A stretch of 22,796 nucleotides of DNA from a virus: the UHGV virus genome UHGV-0317022. One strand, 5' to 3'. This document shows, piece by piece, positions 8,416-22,289 of this stretch. The notes under the pieces are model-generated. The model made no database searches and had not been told where the DNA came from. It was given only the letters and a program-made list of their open reading frames with translations. Each line of letters opens with the position of its first letter. The stretch's first letter is position 1. Made by a program: the position numbers and the translations under genes.

Positions 8416-9630
8416 GTGAAACTCAATGCCCGTCAAATAGACACTGCCAAGCCAAAAGAGAAGGCTTACAAGCTGGCTGATGGTGGTGGTCTGTATCTCC
8501 TGGTAAAACCTAGTGGAGGAAAATACTGGCGCTTTAAATATCGTGTAGCTGGTAAAGAGAAGCTGTTAGCACTAGGTGTGTATCCTGAAGTTACCTTGGC
8601 TGATGCTCGTGCAAAACGTGAAGAAGCTAAAAGGGGTATCGCTGGGGGTATCGATCCGATGGAAGCGAAACGAGAGGAAAAGATTGCCCGGGAAACGCAG
8701 TTAAACAATACCTTCAAAGATATTGCCCTTGAGTGGCACAGCAGCAAATTAAAAAAATGGTCTGCTGGTTATGCTTCAGATATCCTCGAAGCCTTCAACA
8801 AAGATGTGTTCCCTTACATTGGCAAAAAACCAATCGCCGAAATCAAACCACTTGAACTTCTGAATGTGCTGCGACGCATCGAGGGGCGCGGTGCTACAGA
8901 AAAAGCCAAAAAAGTGAGGCAGCGGTGCGGGGAAGTTTTCCGCTATGCAATAGTCACTGGTCGCGCAGAGTATAACCCTGCCCCAGATCTTACTAGCGCG
9001 ATGCAAGGCCATGAATCTAATCATTATCCTTTCCTCACAGCCAAAGAATTGCCTGATTTTTTCAAGGCATTGTCCAGTTACTCAGGAAGTGCATTGGTTG
9101 TTATGGCGGCTCGTCTACTGATTATCACTGGTTTGCGAACTGGCGAACTGCGCGGTGCATTATGGGATGAAATCGATCTCAACAAGGCTATCTGGGAGAT
9201 ACCTGCTTCACGGATGAAAATGCGTCGCCCTCATGTGGTGCCTTTGTCTAAGCAGGCTCTTTCTCTTATTGGGCAGATTAAAGAATTAACTGGTAATTAT
9301 CCGCTTATGTTTCCCGGCCGTAATGATCCAAGGAAAACAATGAGCGAGGCTAGCATAAACCAAGTATTTAAACGCATCGGCTATAACGGAAAGGTTACTG
9401 GTCATGGATTCCGGCACACCATGAGCACGATTTTACATGAGCAGGGCTATAACACCGCGTGGATAGAAACGCAGCTTGCACACGTTGATAAGAACTCAAT
9501 TCGTGGCACGTACAATCATGCGCAATATCTGGACGGGCGGCGCGAGATGCTCCAGTGGTACGCCGACTATATGGATTCGCTCGAACATGGCGGTAACGTG
9601 GTGCATGGCAAGTTCGGAAAATGTGGATGA
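8416..9630 (+). CDS. int: P4-type tyrosine integrase
   Basis: 404 aa with the N-terminus MKLNARQIDTAKPKEKAYKLADGGGLYLLVKPSGGKYWRFKY typical of P4-family integrases. GTG start with GGAGG 9 nt upstream; sits immediately downstream of the tRNA-derived att core. Confidence 0.9.
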   Translation: MKLNARQIDTAKPKEKAYKLADGGGLYLLVKPSGGKYWRFKYRVAGKEKLLALGVYPEVTLADARAKREEAKRGIAGGIDPMEAKREEKIARETQLNNTFKDIALEWHSSKLKKWSAGYASDILEAFNKDVFPYIGKKPIAEIKPLELLNVLRRIEGRGATEKAKKVRQRCGEVFRYAIVTGRAEYNPAPDLTSAMQGHESNHYPFLTAKELPDFFKALSSYSGSALVVMAARLLIITGLRTGELRGALWDEIDLNKAIWEIPASRMKMRRPHVVPLSKQALSLIGQIKELTGNYPLMFPGRNDPRKTMSEASINQVFKRIGYNGKVTGHGFRHTMSTILHEQGYNTAWIETQLAHVDKNSIRGTYNHAQYLDGRREMLQWYADYMDSLEHGGNVVHGKFGKCG

Positions 9631-9758
9631 CTGGTTGCGTATACAGTAGTAGACTTTGAGCGACGAAAGAAAAGGCTGTGTCTAGGGTCGCTCCCGAAAA
9701 TCCGTACACCTCGACGGACTGGTACAGCCACTACAGTAGAGGACGCTGAGGTGTGCGT

Positions 9759-10556: not shown

Positions 10557-10570
10557 CGCACCATACCGCA

Positions 10571-10714
10571 TACCCTGAGGGTGATTTACTGTTACCCTGA
10601 GGGTATTTTTTTATCTTCCCCGTCAATTTTACCATCACCCTTAGGGTAGATTTCCTCCCGATTACCATCACCCTTAGGGTTAATTTCCTTCCGGTAACCA
10701 TTAGGCCTGAGGGT
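10571..10714. promoter_or_regulatory. Cluster of five near-palindromic CCCT(G/T)AGGG sites upstream of alpA
   Basis: TACCCTGAGGGT at 10571-10582 and 10593-10604, CACCCTTAGGGT at 10637-10648 and 10669-10680, GCCTGAGGGT around 10704-10714. The two CACCCTTAGGGT copies sit in a longer direct repeat TACCATCACCCTTAGGGT(A/T).ATTTCC. Confidence 0.55.
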
Positions 10715-10783
10715 ATGAAAATATTCGTTATTTCTGTGCCAGGATTACCTCGTCAAATTGAGTAGACGTTATGAGGTAAATAT

Positions 10784-11058: not shown

Positions 11059-11859
11059 ATGAAATTTCCAAAAACGCCCGTACAGGGGCGGGGCTTCGTT
11101 CGGCCTGAAAACCAGAATCTGCAAAATTTCGGCGAAATTATCCCGATTATTTCCGGCGTTATTGGCGGGAGTGAAACCACTATTGTTAGCGCCAGAGCGT
11201 TACATAAGGCGTTAGGTGTAGGGCGCGTTTTCCGTTCGTGGATCAAGGGGCGCATTGAAGAATACGGGTTCACGGAAGGCGTGGATTATGAGGTTGTTGA
11301 ATATTTGAGCCGCCCCGATCCGGTGAGCGCAAAATCTCGCCAGCAAACCGCTCTTGAGTACATCATCACAGTGAACATGGCGAAAGAACTGGCGATGGTC
11401 GAACGTACCGAACAGGGCCGCGCCGTTCGCCAGTACTTTATCAAATGCGAGGAGGAGCTACACAAGGTTGCGCCTGTTCGTTCCGCAGCGTTACGCCGGG
11501 AACTGAAAGCCCGTATCACAGTTGCCAGCTACTTTAAGCCAATGTGTGCCGCGCTGGAGGCGTACCGGGCTGAACTGGGTAAAAACACACTCCAGCACCA
11601 CTACACCACGGAAGCGAACATGCTGGCGCGTATCGTACTGGGTGGCATGACTGCAAAACAGTGGGCACTGGCGAACGGCATTACAGGCGAACCACGCGAC
11701 CACATGAGCACGTTGCAGCTTGAGCACCTTTCTTACCTTGAGCAGAGCAATATCACGCTGATTGAGTTAGGCCAGGACTACCACCAGCGGAAGGCTGAAT
11801 TAATTCGTCTTTCGCAGCGTTGGTTAGCCCGTCGCATGGAGGAAAACAGCCATGTGTAA
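11059..11859 (+). CDS. AntA/AntB-type antirepressor-domain protein
   Basis: N-terminal SARALHKALGVGRVFRSWIKGRIEEYGFTEGVDYEV fits the AntA-domain pattern. AGGAG lies 6 nt before the ATG. Confidence 0.6.
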   Translation: MKFPKTPVQGRGFVRPENQNLQNFGEIIPIISGVIGGSETTIVSARALHKALGVGRVFRSWIKGRIEEYGFTEGVDYEVVEYLSRPDPVSAKSRQQTALEYIITVNMAKELAMVERTEQGRAVRQYFIKCEEELHKVAPVRSAALRRELKARITVASYFKPMCAALEAYRAELGKNTLQHHYTTEANMLARIVLGGMTAKQWALANGITGEPRDHMSTLQLEHLSYLEQSNITLIELGQDYHQRKAELIRLSQRWLARRMEENSHV

Positions 11860-13159
11860 CGCTCTGACCGTTACAAAAAGAGAAAGCGCCCCGTTGCCGG
11901 AGCGCCTTTGTGAACGAATAGCCTACTGCGCCATATTGCTTACTGTCTACGAGGCAGATTATAGCGTTGTGGTCGCACAGAGTGAAGGCGCTGATCACCG
12001 TTACTACAGCACGCCAGAAATGCAGAATATTTTGCTGCAAAATGTCGTTGGTCACACTGTCCGGAAAGCAAAAAATTTTGCTGGTGGCGCGACTGATGCG
12101 ATTTTGTCAGGTCGCCAGGTGCTGATCAATCTGATGTCTGATTTCGTTCTGGATAAAACAAAGGCGACCGCAGAGGGCCGCCAGTGGGAAAGCTACATAC
12201 TTGAACGCATCGCCAACAATGCCAGATTTGCGGCTGGTGGGCAATGTGTCAGCTTTGCACCAATGACTCTATGTTTAACTGAGGGTCATTATGGTGAATA
12301 TGCTGGCTTGCTGGTGGGCTATTCCTGCTCTTTAACATTGCCATGCCGCGATGTTTTCCAGGTATGCGACCCCATTTTTGTGCGCCTGTACTCTTTAAGG
12401 AATTTCTCAAGGATAAACGCACAGGGCGCGAATCTGTTTGACTCATGCTCGTACGCTATCTTTCTGCGCTGTCTTTTCCGTGCCGGTGATGGTGTATTGG
12501 TTGATTCTTTGTTGGTCATGGCGCAGCCCTGTAAAACGATGCACCGTAGTTCCTCACACCACGGCGCTGGTGATGGTTACTCCTGTTCTTTGGCCTTGCG
12601 GCGCTGGCGGTATTCAACTTCTCGCTTTAATGCTGCTGTTACAAACTGCCCTGTACTTTCACCAGGCATTTTTACCGCCTCAACATTGTTCATAACTTCA
12701 TGCGGAACCCTTGCCGCAACTGTTTGTGATTTTGCGTTTACTGCTTTTGTCGCCATGTTGTGTACCCCTTACAAAAAACAAATGCAGTATGCAGGAAAAA
12801 AAATAAGTGTTCAACACTTGACGTGTTTAACACCTGGGCTTAAATTGGTGTTCAACACCTTGTTGATGCAAGGTGCAGAAACGACAACGCCCCGCAGTGG
12901 TGGCACACATGCAGGGCGTCTAACCACCAACGATAGCAAGAGTATCGAGGTAGCTATGAGAAATCATACCACACACCCGCAAGGGCGGGACTCGCACAAC
13001 CTGAATAAATACATCTGGCGTTTTATCGCCCTGAGCACGGCACAACCGCGCGTAATTCACATCGAGGCCACCAGCGAACAGGAAGCACGCCAGCAATCTC
13101 CTGATGGCTGCGTGATGGTATTCGCAGCCCGTATTCGCCAGGAGGTGGAACATGTGTAA
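11852..13159 (+). CDS. Open frame of 435 codons; probably not one protein (N-terminal ~130 aa plausible, middle looks non-coding)
   Basis: The start overlaps the previous stop (ATGTGTAA). The N-terminal ~130 aa look protein-like, but the middle translates as low-complexity C/S/T-rich sequence and crosses an AT-rich promoter/operator region. A possible frameshift or missing stop cannot be resolved here. Confidence 0.3.
   Translation: MCNALTVTKRESAPLPERLCERIAYCAILLTVYEADYSVVVAQSEGADHRYYSTPEMQNILLQNVVGHTVRKAKNFAGGATDAILSGRQVLINLMSDFVLDKTKATAEGRQWESYILERIANNARFAAGGQCVSFAPMTLCLTEGHYGEYAGLLVGYSCSLTLPCRDVFQVCDPIFVRLYSLRNFSRINAQGANLFDSCSYAIFLRCLFRAGDGVLVDSLLVMAQPCKTMHRSSSHHGAGDGYSCSLALRRWRYSTSRFNAAVTNCPVLSPGIFTASTLFITSCGTLAATVCDFAFTAFVAMLCTPYKKQMQYAGKKISVQHLTCLTPGLKLVFNTLLMQGAETTTPRSGGTHAGRLTTNDSKSIEVAMRNHTTHPQGRDSHNLNKYIWRFIALSTAQPRVIHIEATSEQEARQQSPDGCVMVFAARIRQEVEHV
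12319..12519 (-). CDS. Small basic protein (66 aa), possible regulator
   Basis: Minus-strand ORF MTNKESTNTPSPARKRQRRKIAYEHESN...; looks more protein-like than the overlapping plus-strand frame. Confidence 0.3.
   Translation of the reverse strand: MTNKESTNTPSPARKRQRRKIAYEHESNRFAPCAFILEKFLKEYRRTKMGSHTWKTSRHGNVKEQE
12576..12756 (-). pseudogene. Small DNA-binding-like protein gene with an apparent +1 frameshift
   Basis: ATG at 12756-12754 with AAGGGG upstream gives MATKAVNAKSQT, then a stop after 19 codons. The adjacent frame continues VAARVPHEVMNNVEAVKMPGESTGQFVTAALKREVEYRQRRKAKEQE to a stop at 12578-12576. One extra A near 12718 would explain the break. Confidence 0.3.
12805..12860. promoter_or_regulatory. 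Divergent promoter/operator region with three GTGTT(C/T)AACAC sites
   Basis: GTGTTCAACAC (12807-12817), GTGTTTAACAC (12823-12833), GTGTTCAACAC (12848-12858). A sigma70-like -35 TTGACG (12818-12823) and -10 TAAATT (12841-12846) with a 17-bp spacer overlap the sites. Confidence 0.5.
12956..13159 (+). CDS. Small hypothetical protein (67 aa), first gene of a coupled small-gene operon
   Basis: GAGG 5 nt upstream of ATG 12956; MRNHTTHPQGRDSHNLNKYIWRFIAL... Lies downstream of the promoter/operator region. Confidence 0.45.
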   Translation: MRNHTTHPQGRDSHNLNKYIWRFIALSTAQPRVIHIEATSEQEARQQSPDGCVMVFAARIRQEVEHV

Positions 13160-13376
13160 TGCAACATGGCCTGATGCAGCGGTAGACGCTATCAAAACGC
13201 TGATGGATTCACTTATTGAGATTTCTGCTATCGCTGGTGTGGCGCATAAACACGCAGCCAGAGAATCAGAATGCATCTCCCATTATTTAGCATTTGTGCA
13301 GCTAAAAGCCGATCAGGCACTGGATAAGGCCGGAAAAATTATCATGGCTGATGTGCAGGAGGTGCACCATGCATAA
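13152..13376 (+). CDS. Small hypothetical protein (74 aa)
   Basis: Start overlaps the previous stop (ATGTGTAA); compact phage-like gene packing. Confidence 0.45.
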   Translation: MCNATWPDAAVDAIKTLMDSLIEISAIAGVAHKHAARESECISHYLAFVQLKADQALDKAGKIIMADVQEVHHA

Positions 13377-13734
13377 CCTGTCAATTTCTGACCTTAACAG
13401 CATTCAGTTTGACGAGAAATTTACCGGGCAGTTGCTGGTCAATGTGGAGAACGGGCGCATAGTGCGTAATTACCACCTGCCGGATGGTGCAATTGCCGGA
13501 AGCGTTGAAGCATTGCTGGAACTGGCGGAACGTGCGCGACTGATTAAGCCGTCAACGAGCCATCACGATGATGATCTGCATTTTACCGGGCGTATGGTGA
13601 GTCACTACGAAAACGGCGTTGAAGTATCCCGCGAACGGCTGCGTGATGATTGCTGTTTCGGCACACTGCCGGAATTTATCGAGTTGCTGACCAGTTGCGG
13701 TTATCAGGTCATTCAGGGGGGTAAACATGCGTGA
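13369..13734 (+). CDS. Small hypothetical protein (~121 aa)
   Basis: ATG 13369 preceded by GGAGGTG; overlaps the previous stop (ATGCATAA). The track start at 13351 is upstream of this likely start. Confidence 0.45.
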   Translation: MHNLSISDLNSIQFDEKFTGQLLVNVENGRIVRNYHLPDGAIAGSVEALLELAERARLIKPSTSHHDDDLHFTGRMVSHYENGVEVSRERLRDDCCFGTLPEFIELLTSCGYQVIQGGKHA

Positions 13735-14157: not shown

Positions 14158-14448
14158 ATGAAAAAGAAAAATTCTGGCTTTACTGCCAGCGGCCTCTCTC
14201 GGCCTGAAATCCGCCCCGGTGATATTTCCCGGGACACCAGACGCGGGGGACGGGTGGTTATTCGTCACGTTACGCCAGGCAATATCACCTACCGCCGTGA
14301 GGCTTACGAATATGACTGCGTAATGCCGCGCCGTCAGTTTGATCGTGATTTTATTCTGGTGGAAAACAAACAACAGGCAGTGGCGAGACGTGCAGCCACG
14401 AATATTAAAAAAATCCGGGCAATGTTGGTTGCGGGAGGTAAGAAGTGA
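14158..14448 (+). CDS. Small basic hypothetical protein (96 aa)
   Basis: ORF immediately preceding the primase gene; its stop overlaps the primase GTG start (GTGA). Confidence 0.45.
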   Translation: MKKKNSGFTASGLSRPEIRPGDISRDTRRGGRVVIRHVTPGNITYRREAYEYDCVMPRRQFDRDFILVENKQQAVARRAATNIKKIRAMLVAGGKK

Positions 14449-16250
14449 AAAACGCACCGAGTCTAAAATATCAGCCGAAGGATAAATTCACTGAGGTAAT
14501 CATTTTTGCCGGGACGGATGCTTACGCCCATGCTCAACACTGGATTGAAAGTGAAGGACGAAAACACGGCGATAACGTGCCTCCTGTTTACCTGGGGCCA
14601 AAGCAACTGGCAGACCTGGCGAATATCCGCATTATTGACGAGAAACGCCGTTTTGCGCGTGTCTATATCGCGGGGGAGATAGAGCCAATCCAGATCAATA
14701 CTATCGCTGAAAAGCTGGCGCTGGCTGGCGTACAGGAGGCGAAATTATACAAAGGTATCACCGACCAGGAACCGGAGAACTGGCGCGACTACCTGCAACG
14801 GATCCGCGAACAGGCTGAGCACGGGGAAGTTTCAGTGATGAAATTAGCTACAAAAAATAGTGGTCTACCCAAGCCTGCATTAAATCAGATGGGAGCCAGC
14901 CAGAGAGGGGAAGTGTTACTTGAACATTATGGAGGAGCACTGGCGATAAATGATGATTCTGATGTAGTTCACCATTACAACGGAATTGTTTGGGAGCCTG
15001 TATCTGATAAGGAACTCCAGCGGTCTATGGCGAAGATTTTTATTGATGCCGAAATTAGTTATTCGCAAAACGCCATTAAATTTGCCGTAGAGACAATGAA
15101 ATTGAGTCTACCTGTTATGGGGGGAGCGGACAGAAATCTTATTGGGTTCAGTAACGGTGTTTTTGATATCAGGACAGGAAATTTTCGGGAACACAACAAA
15201 AATGACTGGTTGTTAAATGCCAGTGAATTACCGTTCAGCCCGCCAGAAGAGGGGGAAACGCTGGCAACACATGCGCCGAATTTCTGGAAGTGGTTGCGTC
15301 GTTCGGTGGCGGATAATGCTCGTAAAGCGGATCGCGTACTGGCGGCATTATTCATGGTACTGGCGAACCGGTACGACTGGCAGTTATTCCTTGAGGTAAC
15401 GGGGCCGGGCGGAAGCGGTAAAAGTGTGATGGCGGAGATTTGTACCATGCTGGCGGGTAAGGCCAACACAGTATCGGCAAGCATGAAGGCTCTGGAAGAC
15501 GCAAGGGAACGCGCGTTAGTAGTTGGCTTTTCGCTGATTATCATGCCGGATATGACTCGCTACGCTGGCGATGGTGCAGGAATTAAGGCAATTACTGGCG
15601 GCGACAAGGTGGCAATTGATCCGAAACATAAAGCCCCCTACTCCACACGTATTCCGGCAGTAGTGCTTGCGGTAAACAATAACGCCATGTCATTCAGTGA
15701 CCGAAGCGGGGGGATCTCGCGTCGTAGGGTGATATTTAATTTCTCTGAGGTCGTACCGGAGAACGAACGCGATCCCATGCTGGCGGAAAAGATAGAAGGC
15801 GAACTGGCGGTAGTGATTCGCCATTTGCTAACACGATTTACCGACCAGGACGAAGCTAAAAGACTACTTTATGAGCAGCAAAAATCAGAAGAAGCGCTGT
15901 TGATAAAGCGCGAAGGTGATTCACTGGTGGACTTTTGCGGCTATCTGATGTCGTTGGTTAAATGTGAAGGAATGATGGTGGGCAATGCGGAAATAGTGCC
16001 ATTTAGCCCGAGGCGATACCTGTATCATGCTTATTTAGCCTATATGTCAGCGCATGGCCTGGGAAAACCAGTATCACTGACACGCTTTGGTACTGATATG
16101 CCAGGAGCTATGGCGGAATACGGAAAGGAGTATAAGCGGGCTAAATGCACTAAAGGCCCGGATAAAGGGCGAGTGATAACAAATGTTCTGTTAGATGATG
16201 ATGCTGATGGCTGGTTGCCAGCAGCTACAGGGATTAACGACAGAACATAA
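14445..16250 (+). CDS. Replication primase-helicase (P4 alpha / D5-like, SF3-type NTPase)
   Basis: 601 aa with Walker A VTGPGGSGKSVMAEI and a Walker B-like hhhhPD segment. GGGAGG 6 nt before the GTG start; followed directly by an iteron-containing origin, as in P4/PICI replication modules. Confidence 0.85.
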   Translation: MKNAPSLKYQPKDKFTEVIIFAGTDAYAHAQHWIESEGRKHGDNVPPVYLGPKQLADLANIRIIDEKRRFARVYIAGEIEPIQINTIAEKLALAGVQEAKLYKGITDQEPENWRDYLQRIREQAEHGEVSVMKLATKNSGLPKPALNQMGASQRGEVLLEHYGGALAINDDSDVVHHYNGIVWEPVSDKELQRSMAKIFIDAEISYSQNAIKFAVETMKLSLPVMGGADRNLIGFSNGVFDIRTGNFREHNKNDWLLNASELPFSPPEEGETLATHAPNFWKWLRRSVADNARKADRVLAALFMVLANRYDWQLFLEVTGPGGSGKSVMAEICTMLAGKANTVSASMKALEDARERALVVGFSLIIMPDMTRYAGDGAGIKAITGGDKVAIDPKHKAPYSTRIPAVVLAVNNNAMSFSDRSGGISRRRVIFNFSEVVPENERDPMLAEKIEGELAVVIRHLLTRFTDQDEAKRLLYEQQKSEEALLIKREGDSLVDFCGYLMSLVKCEGMMVGNAEIVPFSPRRYLYHAYLAYMSAHGLGKPVSLTRFGTDMPGAMAEYGKEYKRAKCTKGPDKGRVITNVLLDDDADGWLPAATGINDRT

Positions 16251-16621: not shown

Positions 16622-17164
16622 ATGGGGCAAAGCATGACAAAGCTGACCATTAACAGAAAACCGAAAGGCATTTACGGCACGCCGCAGAAAACGATGCAGG
16701 CGGCGCAGCAGCAGGATAAAACCACATCGGCATATAAAGTGATGCCCGGTAACCAGAACGCGCAACAGAAGCCCACAGGGGCGACACCGTGGCGGCATAT
16801 GACCAAACGCCAGCGCAAAAACCGCAGACGCGTTAACCGCCTCACTGAGTTATGGCCAGAATTATTCAGCCGGGAAGCACCGAAGCCGCTTAAGGTGGGG
16901 ATATTCGACGACCTGCTGCAGGATCTCGCCGTCAGGGGGCTGGCATTCGCTCTAGGGGCATTGCGTGCGACGCTGGCATCTTATGCACAGTGTCCGCGCT
17001 ATTACCGCGCCTTAATGGCTGGTGGGGTACGCTACGACCTGAAAGGCCAGCCGTGCGGCGAGGTGACACCACAGGAACAACAGGACGCAGAAACGCGGCT
17101 GGTGGCGCTGAATGAGAAGCGCAAACGTCAGCGCCGGGCAGCAAAGGAGAAAACAGGCGCATGA
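16622..17164 (+). CDS. FinO/ProQ-domain RNA-binding protein
   Basis: LTELWPELFSREAPKPLKVGIFDDLLQDL ... RYDLKGQPCGEVTPQEQ parallels the E. coli ProQ N-terminal domain (PLKIGIFQDL ... RVDLDGNPCGELDEQH) as I remember it. Confidence 0.7.
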   Translation: MGQSMTKLTINRKPKGIYGTPQKTMQAAQQQDKTTSAYKVMPGNQNAQQKPTGATPWRHMTKRQRKNRRRVNRLTELWPELFSREAPKPLKVGIFDDLLQDLAVRGLAFALGALRATLASYAQCPRYYRALMAGGVRYDLKGQPCGEVTPQEQQDAETRLVALNEKRKRQRRAAKEKTGA

Positions 17165-17448
17165 TTCACGACAGTAAAGCCGAAGCACTGGAAGCGCGTG
17201 GTCTGTACCGGAGAGCGGCGGCGCGGTGGGCTGAGGTCATTATGCTGGCGAACGGTGACAAGGCACGGGAACAGGCGGCAAAACGTCGAGCGGAATGTAT
17301 CCACAAGGCAGCACGCCCGCCAGTAAGGCAGGATAATTTCGGGGAGATGCGCGACACCATCAGCCGGGCACATGCCGGGATGGGATTACATCAGCCCAAT
17401 GGTGAGGCATTCAGGAAATACCCTGGATCGAAAAATTGCAATCAGTGA
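17161..17448 (+). CDS. PerC/Pch-family transcriptional regulator-like protein
   Basis: 95 aa starting MIHDSKAEALEARGLYRRAAARWAEVIM, which resembles the PerC/Pch N-terminal signature from memory. Start overlaps the previous stop (ATGA). Confidence 0.55.
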   Translation: MIHDSKAEALEARGLYRRAAARWAEVIMLANGDKAREQAAKRRAECIHKAARPPVRQDNFGEMRDTISRAHAGMGLHQPNGEAFRKYPGSKNCNQ

Positions 17449-20320: not shown

Positions 20321-21316
20321 ATGGATACGAGAGTGGCGACGATAATCAAAAATATAGCAATCAAAGGTCTTTTTAAACGGAAGGACATTGATTGGAGTTT
20401 AAAAGATGTGAATGTTTTAGTGGGTAAAAATGGCTCAGGTAAGAGCACGATAATTCAAAGTGTTTTTGCCCTCTTAAAACAAGAATTAAATGAAAGTTTA
20501 AGTAATGCTGCGTTGGCTCAAATAACATTGGCCAATGGAGGCACAATTACTCACAAAGTTAATTTTCGCGAAATTGACTCTGTCCAGCTTCTAAACCTAC
20601 TTAATAACCTTAAGAAAAACAGTATTAAAGGTAAATCAAAGGGTAAGGAAATAAAGGAGTTAAATGAACTTATTGAGTTGCTTGAATCGAAAAAAGAAGA
20701 CACTGAAATTAAAGAGTTCGGGATGGGAACTGTTAGCGTAAGTGATAATATTAAAAACACTAAGCGAATAAATGTTGAGTTAATATCAACTATCAATATG
20801 AGTGCCAATTCCATCTATGAATTCAAAAAAAGTGATGGTGAGCGCACCACAATTCTTGATATGGAAATTGCTGGTGAATTAGAAAGGTTAAAGAATACTT
20901 TCAAAGTAAGTGAGTCTAAAGGTATTCTCATAAAGGATAAGTTGGAATCAGCTATAAATAATTTATTTGCTGAATGTAACAAAGTTGTTTCTTTTAGTAA
21001 TGGTAACATTTCTATTAAGATGAGTGATTCTGGTGAAGATATTAGGTATAATCTTCTTTCATCAGGTGAACGTCAGTTGTTATATATTCTGATTAAAACA
21101 GCTAATACTTCATTGGATGAATCTGTCTTGTTGATGGATGAGCCAGAAATATCCTTGCACCTTACGTGGCAAGAAAGATTAATAAGCACCATCAAATCAA
21201 TTAACGATAATTGTCAGTTAATTATTGTTACTCATAGTCCTGCAATATTAATGAAAGGCTGGATGGATTCTTTCGTAGATATAAAAAATATTTCAAAGGA
21301 ATCTTCTCATGACTGA
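20321..21316 (+). CDS. ABC-type ATPase (AAA_21/AAA_15-like), ATPase component of a two-gene OLD/PARIS/AbiL-like cassette
   Basis: Walker A VGKNGSGKST, ABC signature-like LSSGERQLLYIL, Walker B LLMDEPEISLH, H-loop VTHSP. The gene is visibly AT-rich and its stop overlaps the start of the downstream TOPRIM-like gene. Confidence 0.8.
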   Translation: MDTRVATIIKNIAIKGLFKRKDIDWSLKDVNVLVGKNGSGKSTIIQSVFALLKQELNESLSNAALAQITLANGGTITHKVNFREIDSVQLLNLLNNLKKNSIKGKSKGKEIKELNELIELLESKKEDTEIKEFGMGTVSVSDNIKNTKRINVELISTINMSANSIYEFKKSDGERTTILDMEIAGELERLKNTFKVSESKGILIKDKLESAINNLFAECNKVVSFSNGNISIKMSDSGEDIRYNLLSSGERQLLYILIKTANTSLDESVLLMDEPEISLHLTWQERLISTIKSINDNCQLIIVTHSPAILMKGWMDSFVDIKNISKESSHD

Positions 21317-22289
21317 GTTTGAGGATATTAATTTTAGCGAAGAATATCTTCAGGTATATTGTATTATGGCTGGACACAATGGCTTTGTCTTTGTTGAAGG
21401 TCTAAAAGACATTTCTTTCTGGGAAGGCTTATTAAACGATAAAGATAATGATATACGTTTTGATATTTGTAACCCTACCAATAAAGGAACAAAAGGGAAA
21501 CCAGTATTAAAAAAATTCATGAGCCGAGCAAATCGATATGCCATATTTGCAATGGATAGTGATTTTGATTATTTATGCCCTAAAAACAGTACAGACTCAG
21601 AGATAATTTGCAGTAACAAGTTTATTTTTCAAACATTTGTATATTCAAAAGAGAGCATCGAGTTACACCATGAAGTCCTTGAGTATTGTCTTTCTCAAAT
21701 AAAGATCGCTACTGAAATTAAATTCGATTTTACAGCATACATTACAGAGTATTCACGGTTGATCTACCCCGTGCTGAAGAAATTTTTATTGCTTAAACAG
21801 CATCAAGTTAGACTTGATGACTCAGTTTTCCATGAAGCGATTGCTCCTTCTGTGCCACGATTAACGAACCAATTTGTTATCAAAAATGCTGTATTTGAAA
21901 GTATGCAGCAATCTAAAGCGGTTATTGAAGAAAAACTTGATAACCTTATTCAAGATGAATACGATGCTGATAAATTCTATGAGCAGTTATATGATAAAGG
22001 ATTGAGAGAAGATAACGCCTATCAATATATCAATGGTCATTTTTTAGCTGATAGAGTTGTCATGCCTGTCATAAAATCATTGATAGAGCAATTGAATATT
22101 AATGAAACTGCCTTAATAGTCAAACAATGCAAAGATAAACCAACCTTAATCTCGGAAAGAAAGAGTGAGCTAAAAAATATTCTTGAAACTGATTTGAATA
22201 TTAATACGCTATTACACTGTTGCAAAGAAAAGTTCAAAACTCCTTGTGCTATTGCGATCAAAGAAAATGTAGCTCGAGCTTTAGCATGA
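21309..22289 (+). CDS. TOPRIM-like (DUF4435-like) putative nuclease, partner of the ABC ATPase
   Basis: N-terminal FVFVEGLKDISFWEGLL (TOPRIM E-G-x-x-D glutamate motif) and AIFAMDSDFDY (DxD motif). AAGGAA 8 nt upstream of the ATG; 8-nt overlap with the ATPase stop (ATGACTGA). Confidence 0.7.
   Translation: MTEFEDINFSEEYLQVYCIMAGHNGFVFVEGLKDISFWEGLLNDKDNDIRFDICNPTNKGTKGKPVLKKFMSRANRYAIFAMDSDFDYLCPKNSTDSEIICSNKFIFQTFVYSKESIELHHEVLEYCLSQIKIATEIKFDFTAYITEYSRLIYPVLKKFLLLKQHQVRLDDSVFHEAIAPSVPRLTNQFVIKNAVFESMQQSKAVIEEKLDNLIQDEYDADKFYEQLYDKGLREDNAYQYINGHFLADRVVMPVIKSLIEQLNINETALIVKQCKDKPTLISERKSELKNILETDLNINTLLHCCKEKFKTPCAIAIKENVARALA

Follow-up and report, generated by a model that had tools for sequence, protein, structure and literature searches.

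A 435-codon frame stays open across an antisense repressor-like gene and its candidate operators in a phage-inducible chromosomal island of Escherichia coli

Why does an open reading frame (ORF) of 435 codons run through a divergent promoter region and an entire gene of the opposite strand? The question is raised by a stretch of 22,796 nucleotides from the virus genome UHGV-0317022 (hereafter the window), which, judging by its gene content, carries a Gram-negative phage-inducible chromosomal island (PICI). The frame extends on the plus strand from 11852 to 13159, as an earlier note on this DNA had stated, and we refer to it as ORF435. We consider it probable that ORF435 belongs to a nested gene pair of the P4 eta/kil type, as its long (eta-like) frame, and that it is kept open to be translated. 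The best reading is that selection acts on translation of the frame and not on its protein, and that this translation would shield alpA-driven transcripts from termination by Rho. ORF435 and the features that it crosses or touches are these:

11852-13159, plus strand: ORF435, the eta-like long frame (435 amino acids; ATG at 11852, stop codon at 13159)
11838-11842, plus strand: Shine-Dalgarno sequence GGAGG, read from the sequence, 9 nucleotides before the ATG of ORF435
11873-11908, minus strand: block A, terminator-like (11-bp stem plus CTCTTTTTGT)
12153-12182, minus strand: block B, intrinsic terminator (GGCGGCC-loop-GGTCGCC, then TTTGTTTTAT)
12319-12519, minus strand: ORF66, a PGAP "hypothetical protein" of 66 amino acids, in conserved block D (12385-12576)
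12541-12567, minus strand: terminator-like hairpin just past the ylcI stop codon
12577-12756, minus strand: ylcI, an intact YlcI/YnfO-family gene (putative immunity repressor, 59 amino acids), antisense within ORF435
12786-12814, minus strand: putative leftward ylcI promoter (-35 TTGAAC, reverse complement of 12809-12814, in O1; 17-nucleotide spacer; -10 CATACT, reverse complement of 12786-12791)
12796-12803, plus strand: run of eight A (A8) in the intergenic part of the frame
12807-12858, no strand: candidate operators O1 (12807-12817) and O2 (12823-12833), which flank the -35 of the rightward promoter, and O3 (12848-12858), just past its -10
12818-12846, plus strand: putative internal rightward promoter (TTGACG at 12818-12823, 17 nucleotides, TAAATT at 12841-12846), a sequence match only
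12887-12919, plus strand: leader hairpin 1 (ACGCCCCGCA ... TGCAGGGCGT), then an invariant C-rich CTAACCACCAACGATA
12927-12950, plus strand: leader hairpin 2 (CC-AA-CGATA-loop-TATCG-A-GG), which pairs with the icd Shine-Dalgarno sequence GAGG (12947-12950)
12956-13159, plus strand: Icd-like gene, the counterpart of kil (67 amino acids; NF033153, E=3.8e-20), which makes up the last 67 codons of ORF435, in the same frame
13152-13376, plus strand: the gene next after ORF435, whose ATG overlaps the common stop codon of ORF435 and icd (ATGTGTAA)

On its way to the stop codon that it shares, in frame, with the icd/kil-like gene, ORF435 crosses two minus-strand terminators, ORF66, the antisense ylcI gene and the promoter/operator region. 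Its ATG overlaps the stop codon of the upstream gene antA (ATGTGTAA). The downstream junction has the same design, AGGAGG followed by ATGTGTAA at 13152-13159, such that both ends of ORF435 can be written as (A)GGAGG-N7-9-ATGTGTAA. The antA/ORF435 junction ACAGCCATGTGTAACGC is kept in all loci that have antA, and ORF435 is probably coupled translationally to antA, as judged from this arrangement. In relatives that lack antA the long frame begins 2-52 nucleotides past the adjacent upstream gene (of the alpA type where identified), and in the simpler relatives directly after alpA. A canonical Shine-Dalgarno sequence often precedes these starts (e.g. TAAAGGGGAGCATATG).

The annotation of the region is truly ambiguous, as the earlier note had already sensed. 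In one genome PGAP calls antA, a gap, a 66-amino-acid hypothetical protein, ylcI and an icd-like gene, and omits the long ORF. When ORF435 served as the query of a protein search, more than 100 clusters were obtained (73-100% identity, with a coverage of 100% in nearly all), in which the whole frame of 405-487 amino acids is called as one protein, for the most part under the name "host cell division inhibitor Icd-like protein".

Since a sample of database hits depends on gene calling, samples were built regardless of the state of the frame. From IMG/VR, 80 loci were collected with the 67-amino-acid Icd-like protein and 57 with the 59-amino-acid YlcI protein (137 in total); an earlier scan of contigs with the Icd-like protein had yielded 3 loci only, and IMG/VR was used in its place. 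Going upstream from the icd ATG in the 80 loci picked with the Icd-like protein, one meets no stop in the icd frame for 60-586 codons (median near 290; loci at contig ends excepted), and the other two plus-strand frames are closed within 1-11 codons. Wherever the frame is open, the repressor ATG and icd are 194, 197, 200, 206, 212, 356, 362, 572 or 938 nucleotides apart, all of which equal 2 modulo 3. The frame is open through at least 15 repressor clusters (less than 80% identity between clusters), which include eight types of 59-amino-acid YlcI protein, forms of 65-67 and 101-106 amino acids, and Arc-like proteins of 57, 58 and 64 amino acids. In every repressor type examined the third codon positions of both strands coincide.

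In related islands the plus strand between alpA/antA and icd is spanned by one open frame or by coupled ORFs that cover it without a gap. Continuous coverage by plus-strand ORFs over at least 600 nucleotides before icd was found in 93 of 99 unique loci, versus 20 of 495 shuffles, and of the six loci that fell short five did so as an artefact of the cut-off used. In the non-nested exceptions (variants with 1-nucleotide indels, and a class whose icd is of another subtype) another plus-strand ORF covers the repressor and the promoter, and its end either coincides with the icd start or overlaps it. The locus L029, which seems to be degraded, has partial coverage only. A tblastn search of a phage collection with ORF435 gave one match, to the Klebsiella cf-PICI vB_KppS-Ant, where a frame of 324 amino acids likewise ends in icd.

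Two loci have frames of unusual extent. In L033 (2243-4204) a frame of 653 codons takes two tandem repressor/operator-like modules into its translation and still ends in icd. In L070 (2252-3682) the icd stop codon has been lost, and a frame of 476 codons continues into the next gene.

Could such a frame be fortuitous? The real genes would then be those called by PGAP (antA, ORF66, ylcI and the 67-amino-acid icd-like gene), 11860-12318 would be a non-coding spacer, and the frame would be open through depletion of stops antisense to a gene combined with common ancestry. That PGAP leaves out the long ORF on an identical genome is in line with this, as is the translation of the middle of ORF435, which is rich in Cys, Ser and Leu and typical of antisense reading. 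Indeed, when the repressors were recoded synonymously, the antisense frame whose third positions coincide with theirs was open by chance in 8-76% of the trials, and the chance openness for the antisense of ylcI was 0.27 by the same type of recoding. It dropped, however, to 0.022 for the intergenic stretch of 199 nucleotides and to 0.0002 for 11860-12318 (shuffles). An alignment of homologs over 11860-12756 shows 19 and 25 new stop triplets in the two alternative frames and none in that of the ORF, and indels keep the frame. The openness survives rearrangements, differing upstream genes, the extension to 653 codons in L033 and the step to another genus (Klebsiella), and the frame invariably starts next to the upstream gene, in many cases behind a canonical Shine-Dalgarno sequence. 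The openness of ORF435 is far beyond chance and is not an accident; a chance ORF was rejected as a very improbable explanation.

A frame that is kept open would ordinarily be taken to encode a functional protein, here an Eta or "Bro-zone" protein, or perhaps a long isoform of Icd/Kil with a regulatory N-terminal extension, selected for its product. The conservation of the frame, its listing in databases as a protein of 405-487 amino acids, its good Shine-Dalgarno sequence and coupled start, and its conserved C-terminal Icd-like domain all agree with this, and P4 Eta is a named gene product (PMC10111431). Moreover, the motif "KTKAT..GR...AAGGQ" recurs as far as Klebsiella. Distinct substitutions were counted by plus-strand codon position (1/2/3), with antA as the coding control. 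They numbered 33/41/99 in antA and 24/24/56 in icd, but 27/24/30 in 11860-12129 and 17/23/25 in 12130-12318, such that 11860-12318 has no codon-position bias. The icd part is also the sole part of ORF435 with a domain match in Pfam and NCBIfam, and searches of the same two collections with the long frames of other loci, aimed at an N-terminal "Ash" or Bro domain, matched the icd part only. Furthermore, the middle of the frame is the antisense of at least 15 unrelated-looking repressor/operator modules and is wholly different between types, and some classes cover the region in a frame other than that of icd, stopping at the icd start. The amino acid sequence of ORF435 outside icd is not constrained, and selection for the long product is in our opinion unlikely. 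Conservation from end to end, named in the earlier note as evidence that would count against its reading, thus holds for the openness of the frame, across diverged and rearranged relatives, but not for its amino acid sequence. Since the frame is open across relatives and yet unconstrained in its amino acids, we take it to be selected for being translated rather than for its product.

The recurrent N-terminal motif has another origin. Short blocks of DNA are conserved within ORF435 in otherwise unrelated contexts, and these are features of the minus strand. The DNA around block A (11875-11931) is conserved in this way. All 23 variants of block B fold into a stem with a T-run behind it; their loops vary, and Klebsiella has a compensatory change. 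Read on the plus strand, block B yields the peptide "KTKAT..GR", which in relatives stands at the beginning of the long frame or close to it; the peptide recurs because the DNA of the minus-strand terminator is conserved. Blocks A and B were accordingly rejected as protein motifs.

ORF66 lies in the same minus-strand frame as ylcI. Its homologs are hypothetical proteins restricted to Escherichia (E. coli and E. albertii), and it matches no Pfam family. The substitutions show a weak third-position bias (55/58/84), which cannot separate the strands because the third positions of both coincide. ORF66 may or may not be the second gene of a repressor operon.

What, then, is the gene that ORF435 crosses in antisense? 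The earlier note had been right to see a small minus-strand regulator beside a divergent promoter/operator switch, to judge from the sequence, but had supposed that it was broken by a +1 frameshift, either as a decayed repressor gene that leaves the island derepressed or through an assembly error. Both suppositions have a negligible probability and were rejected. The ORF at 12577-12756 is uninterrupted, and its protein of 59 amino acids matches the NCBIfam family YlcI_YnfO_N (NF041551) over residues 9-50 with E=2.1e-16 (59.7 bits, cut-off 30). An identical protein is annotated in RefSeq (WP_000201462.1), where it is intact in a 100%-identical E. coli chromosome. With respect to assembly, at least 30 complete E. 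coli genomes contain 11700-13400 at an identity of 99.8-100% (100% over 1.7 kb in NZ_CP178552, and 99.8-99.9% in 29 others listed), and the 1-nucleotide indels that occur in a minority of loci fall in the intergenic A-run and not in the regulator.

An AlphaFold2 model of the monomer (pLDDT 77) has an extended N-terminal part or coil followed by helices at residues 19-28 and 35-58. No significant match in the PDB was obtained, either by sequence search or by fold (Foldseek). Sibling repressors at the same position have sub-threshold matches to Arc, RHH_1, HicB and NikR. From these data a ribbon-helix-helix fold may be proposed, and the protein would be a putative immunity repressor that binds the palindromes over the internal promoter. 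Our literature search returned nothing relevant on ribbon-helix-helix repressors in PICIs, on the function of YlcI/YnfO or on protein-based immunity in P4-like elements.

The three palindromes GTGTT(C/T)AACAC around TTGACG-17-TAAATT are present as described earlier. They are the only matches in the window, even when one mismatch is allowed; the six strand-matches compare with 0.68 expected, and none of 100 shuffles reached six. On the other side, a leftward ylcI promoter is predicted from the sequence. Its AGTATA motif occurs at the same place in other immunity types, and the Shine-Dalgarno sequence of ylcI, AAGGGG, is the reverse complement of 12765-12770. The geometry of the promoters is fixed in related loci, and the palindrome that is repeated at the operator positions is particular to each repressor type; GTGTAAGACAC, GTGGCTGACAC, TGTGCGCACA, ACTGGAATCCAGT and GGTAATTACC are examples. 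Such co-variation of operators with repressor type at fixed positions is the signature of exchangeable immunity modules, each consisting of a repressor and its operators.

The A8 run next to O1 is a sensitive point of the frame, since the loss of a single A brings in a TAA that closes it at O1. The loci L038 and L097 carry AAAAAATAAGTG and have their frame broken precisely there. The break could stem from an error in sequencing, or the run could be a point prone to slippage at which the long frame is switched on and off.

Downstream of the internal promoter, six pairs of leader hairpin 1 are kept through changes on both sides (15 variants, across immunity types), and hairpin 2 has an invariant stem and a variable loop. 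Hairpin 2 probably sequesters the Shine-Dalgarno sequence of icd, as its pairing indicates. The leader (12887-12950) suggests control at the RNA level, as a loading site for Rho or as the target of an RNA. Besides the covarying hairpins, the conserved C-rich segment and the paired Shine-Dalgarno sequence, a further hint at Rho is the composition of the plus-strand RNA over antisense ylcI (12620-12739), which has 30% C and 12% G.

The arrangement resembles that of P4, whose minus strand reads vis-ATGA-eta...kil-GTGCGTAA-epsilon. There the vis stop codon overlaps the eta start, eta (199 codons) ends in frame with kil (65 amino acids), and the next gene overlaps their common stop by 8 nucleotides (GTGCGTAA). 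According to the passage on P4 in PMC10111431, which cites Forti et al. 1999, a constitutive promoter lies inside eta and Kil is a shortened Eta; termination is stated there to be prevented when eta is translated from the upstream promoter, with read-through that is insensitive to immunity. In both elements the long frame starts at the stop codon of an upstream gene (vis ATGA in P4, antA ATGTGTAA in the window; in relatives it begins directly after alpA), holds immunity determinants and an internal promoter (in the window a consensus match), and ends in a Kil/Icd-like gene of about 65 amino acids that shares its stop codon and overlaps the following gene by 8 nucleotides. P4 Kil matches the same model as the Icd-like protein of the window, NF033153 (E=1.6e-21). 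The differences concern the length of the frame (435 versus 199 codons), the upstream activator (AlpA in the window, Delta/PLL in P4) and, above all, the nature of immunity. P4 has its C4 (CI) and isrK-like (seqA) RNAs inside eta on the same strand, whereas the window has an antisense protein gene and three palindromic operators. Rfam searches of the window at the gathering threshold, and of 11500-13600 at E<=10, turned up neither C4 nor isrK, although the P4 and L145 controls were matched. No other relevant RNA was found either, and RNA-based immunity of the CI/C4 type was therefore rejected for the window.

The locus L145 (2488-3095 in NZ_CP119577) is a relative with RNA immunity. It has alpA, block B, and isrK-like and C4 RNAs inside a frame of 198 codons that overlaps icd out of frame and ends 11 nucleotides before the icd stop. 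This frame, annotated by PGAP as an "ash family protein", looks like an eta-like frame that is read across the CI RNA.

Two other immunity systems are worth comparing. In the immI operon of phage P1 (c4 RNA, icd, ant) translation of icd is needed for downstream transcription. The likeness lies in a small Icd-family ORF that is the first to be translated in the operon, and the family name of the 67-amino-acid gene is taken from P1 icd. P1 differs in its use of an antisense RNA, and we know of no long nested frame or antisense protein gene in immI. With the lambdoid phages the window shares a divergent promoter pair, three repeated palindromes, and repressors and operators that co-vary as exchangeable modules. 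Unlike the CI-type helix-turn-helix protein, however, its repressor would be a ribbon-helix-helix-like protein of about 59 amino acids, and the whole module sits within a plus-strand frame of the other strand. Among the papers searched, the descriptions of PICIs of the EcCICFT073/EcCIMP1 type do not mention an antisense ribbon-helix-helix gene or a long frame, and no description of a protein-based, antisense-embedded variant of eta/kil was found.

By analogy with P4, a mechanism can be proposed for ORF435 as a translated frame. At rest, a ribbon-helix-helix-like dimer of the 59-amino-acid protein on O1-O3 would shut the internal promoter and autoregulate its own leftward promoter, and leftward transcripts would end at the conserved minus-strand terminators. 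A transcript from the internal promoter would have a leader of 100 nucleotides with the icd ribosome-binding site paired in a hairpin, and owing to this pairing it would be poorly translated and prone to termination by Rho. When a helper phage turns on alpA, transcription from the alpA promoter would enter the region from upstream, and ribosomes handed over by antA would translate ORF435 without interruption, passing the terminator blocks, the C-rich RNA antisense to ylcI, the operators and the hairpins of the leader. This translation would block the loading of Rho and open the hairpin over the icd Shine-Dalgarno sequence, such that RNA polymerase and ribosomes reach icd and the coupled replication genes and the immunity exerted by the repressor is bypassed. 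The long product would still bear the Icd/Kil domain at its C-terminus.

Several points weigh against this reading. Promoter activity, binding of the repressor, dependence on Rho, and transcription and translation of ORF435 are predictions from the sequence, as the ribbon-helix-helix fold is from the model and the sibling matches. The P4 mechanism was taken for comparison from a secondary summary (PMC10111431). Block D and the antisense of ylcI do show a third-position bias, which can be explained by either strand. The loci L029, L038, L097, L124 and L133 carry 1-nucleotide indels or appear degraded, and the open nested frame is therefore not indispensable. Finally, the loci are mostly E. coli mosaics of common ancestry, such that the independent tests of openness are fewer than the counts of loci.

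With regard to its setting, the window consists of the end of a prophage with tail-fibre genes followed by the island, in which int, alpA and a primase/replication module are co-oriented and accessory genes lie downstream, the gene order by which PICIs are recognised. The neighbouring genes are as follows:

8416-9630: integrase (int)
Between int and alpA: a hypothetical protein of 267 amino acids
10784-10981, plus strand: alpA, AlpA-family regulator/excisionase (Pfam Phage_AlpA, E=2.4e-19), at the head of the rightward gene chain
11059-11859, plus strand: antA, AntA/AntB antirepressor family (Pfam AntA, E=2.5e-23), whose stop codon overlaps the ORF435 start
14158-14448: DUF4222 gene
14445-16250: D5_N/DUF5906 primase
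16622-17448: ProQ/FinO-family and PerC-family genes, downstream of the primase and followed by further cargo

A chain of coupled small genes downstream of ORF435 reaches the primase, which ends at 16250. The order int, alpA, (antirepressor/Ash), primase and PerC, all co-oriented, is that of EcCICFT073 and EcCIMP1 (PMC6092414; PMC11773190), and the ProQ/FinO and PerC genes 3' of the primase are likewise shared with EcCIMP1. In EcCICFT073, AlpA switches on its own promoter and the downstream genes (PMC6092414), and the PerC-like protein of EcCIMP1 silences LEE expression (PMC11773190). Helper-phage induction, excision and packaging are taken here from the literature on related islands (PMC6092414; PMC11773190). 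A 100%-identical copy of the region is found in E. coli WWCOL-236, adjoining yagU; the locus L001 adjoins yagU as EcCIMP1 does. About a quarter of the complete E. coli genomes (1386 of 5426) match the region at least in part.

Some further observations concern the window outside ORF435. Upstream of alpA, at 10569-10716, there are five palindromes of the type ACCCT(G/T)AGGGT (e.g. TACCCTGAGGGTG, TACCCTGAGGGTA and CACCCTTAGGGTA), to which AlpA, or else an activator encoded by the helper, may bind at the alpA promoter. With 45.5 bits, against a gathering score of 35.8, the Rfam int-alpA RNA (RF02996) matches at 9675-9742, between the integrase gene and the one that follows it, and IS009 of Rfam matches with 225.7 bits at 2609-2807, within the tail-fibre assembly gene of the neighbouring prophage. 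At 20321-22289 an AAA_15/AAA_21 ATPase (331 amino acids) is followed by a DUF4435 protein (326 amino acids); the pair, which we take to resemble the PARIS anti-phage system of satellites, looks like defence cargo of the island.

In its broadest form the proposal is that widespread enterobacterial satellites keep a drifting "translated bridge" of 200-650 codons through an exchangeable antisense repressor and its switch, that this bridge shields transcripts from Rho and overrides immunity, that the repressor is also that of the PICI, and that a frame with coinciding wobble positions has been kept in at least 15 immunity types. For this whole we see arguments for and against in about equal measure. 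The ORF435 region clears up a recurrent conflict in E. coli annotation, in which hundreds of "Icd-like protein" entries of more than 400 amino acids stand against four small genes. It indicates a concrete repressor-operator system for the Gram-negative PICIs, whose global repressor has been described as unclear (PMC6092414), and if the proposal is true the long-sought repressor of these islands would be identified. There would then also be a natural sense/antisense pair whose relative frame, with coinciding wobble positions, is conserved over at least 15 immunity types. The eta/kil logic of P4, translating through the immunity region to escape termination, would be extended to PICIs with a protein repressor, and ORF435 would offer a clean natural example in which selection acts on translatability but not on the protein, and in which an antisense-embedded gene keeps a conserved frame relation.

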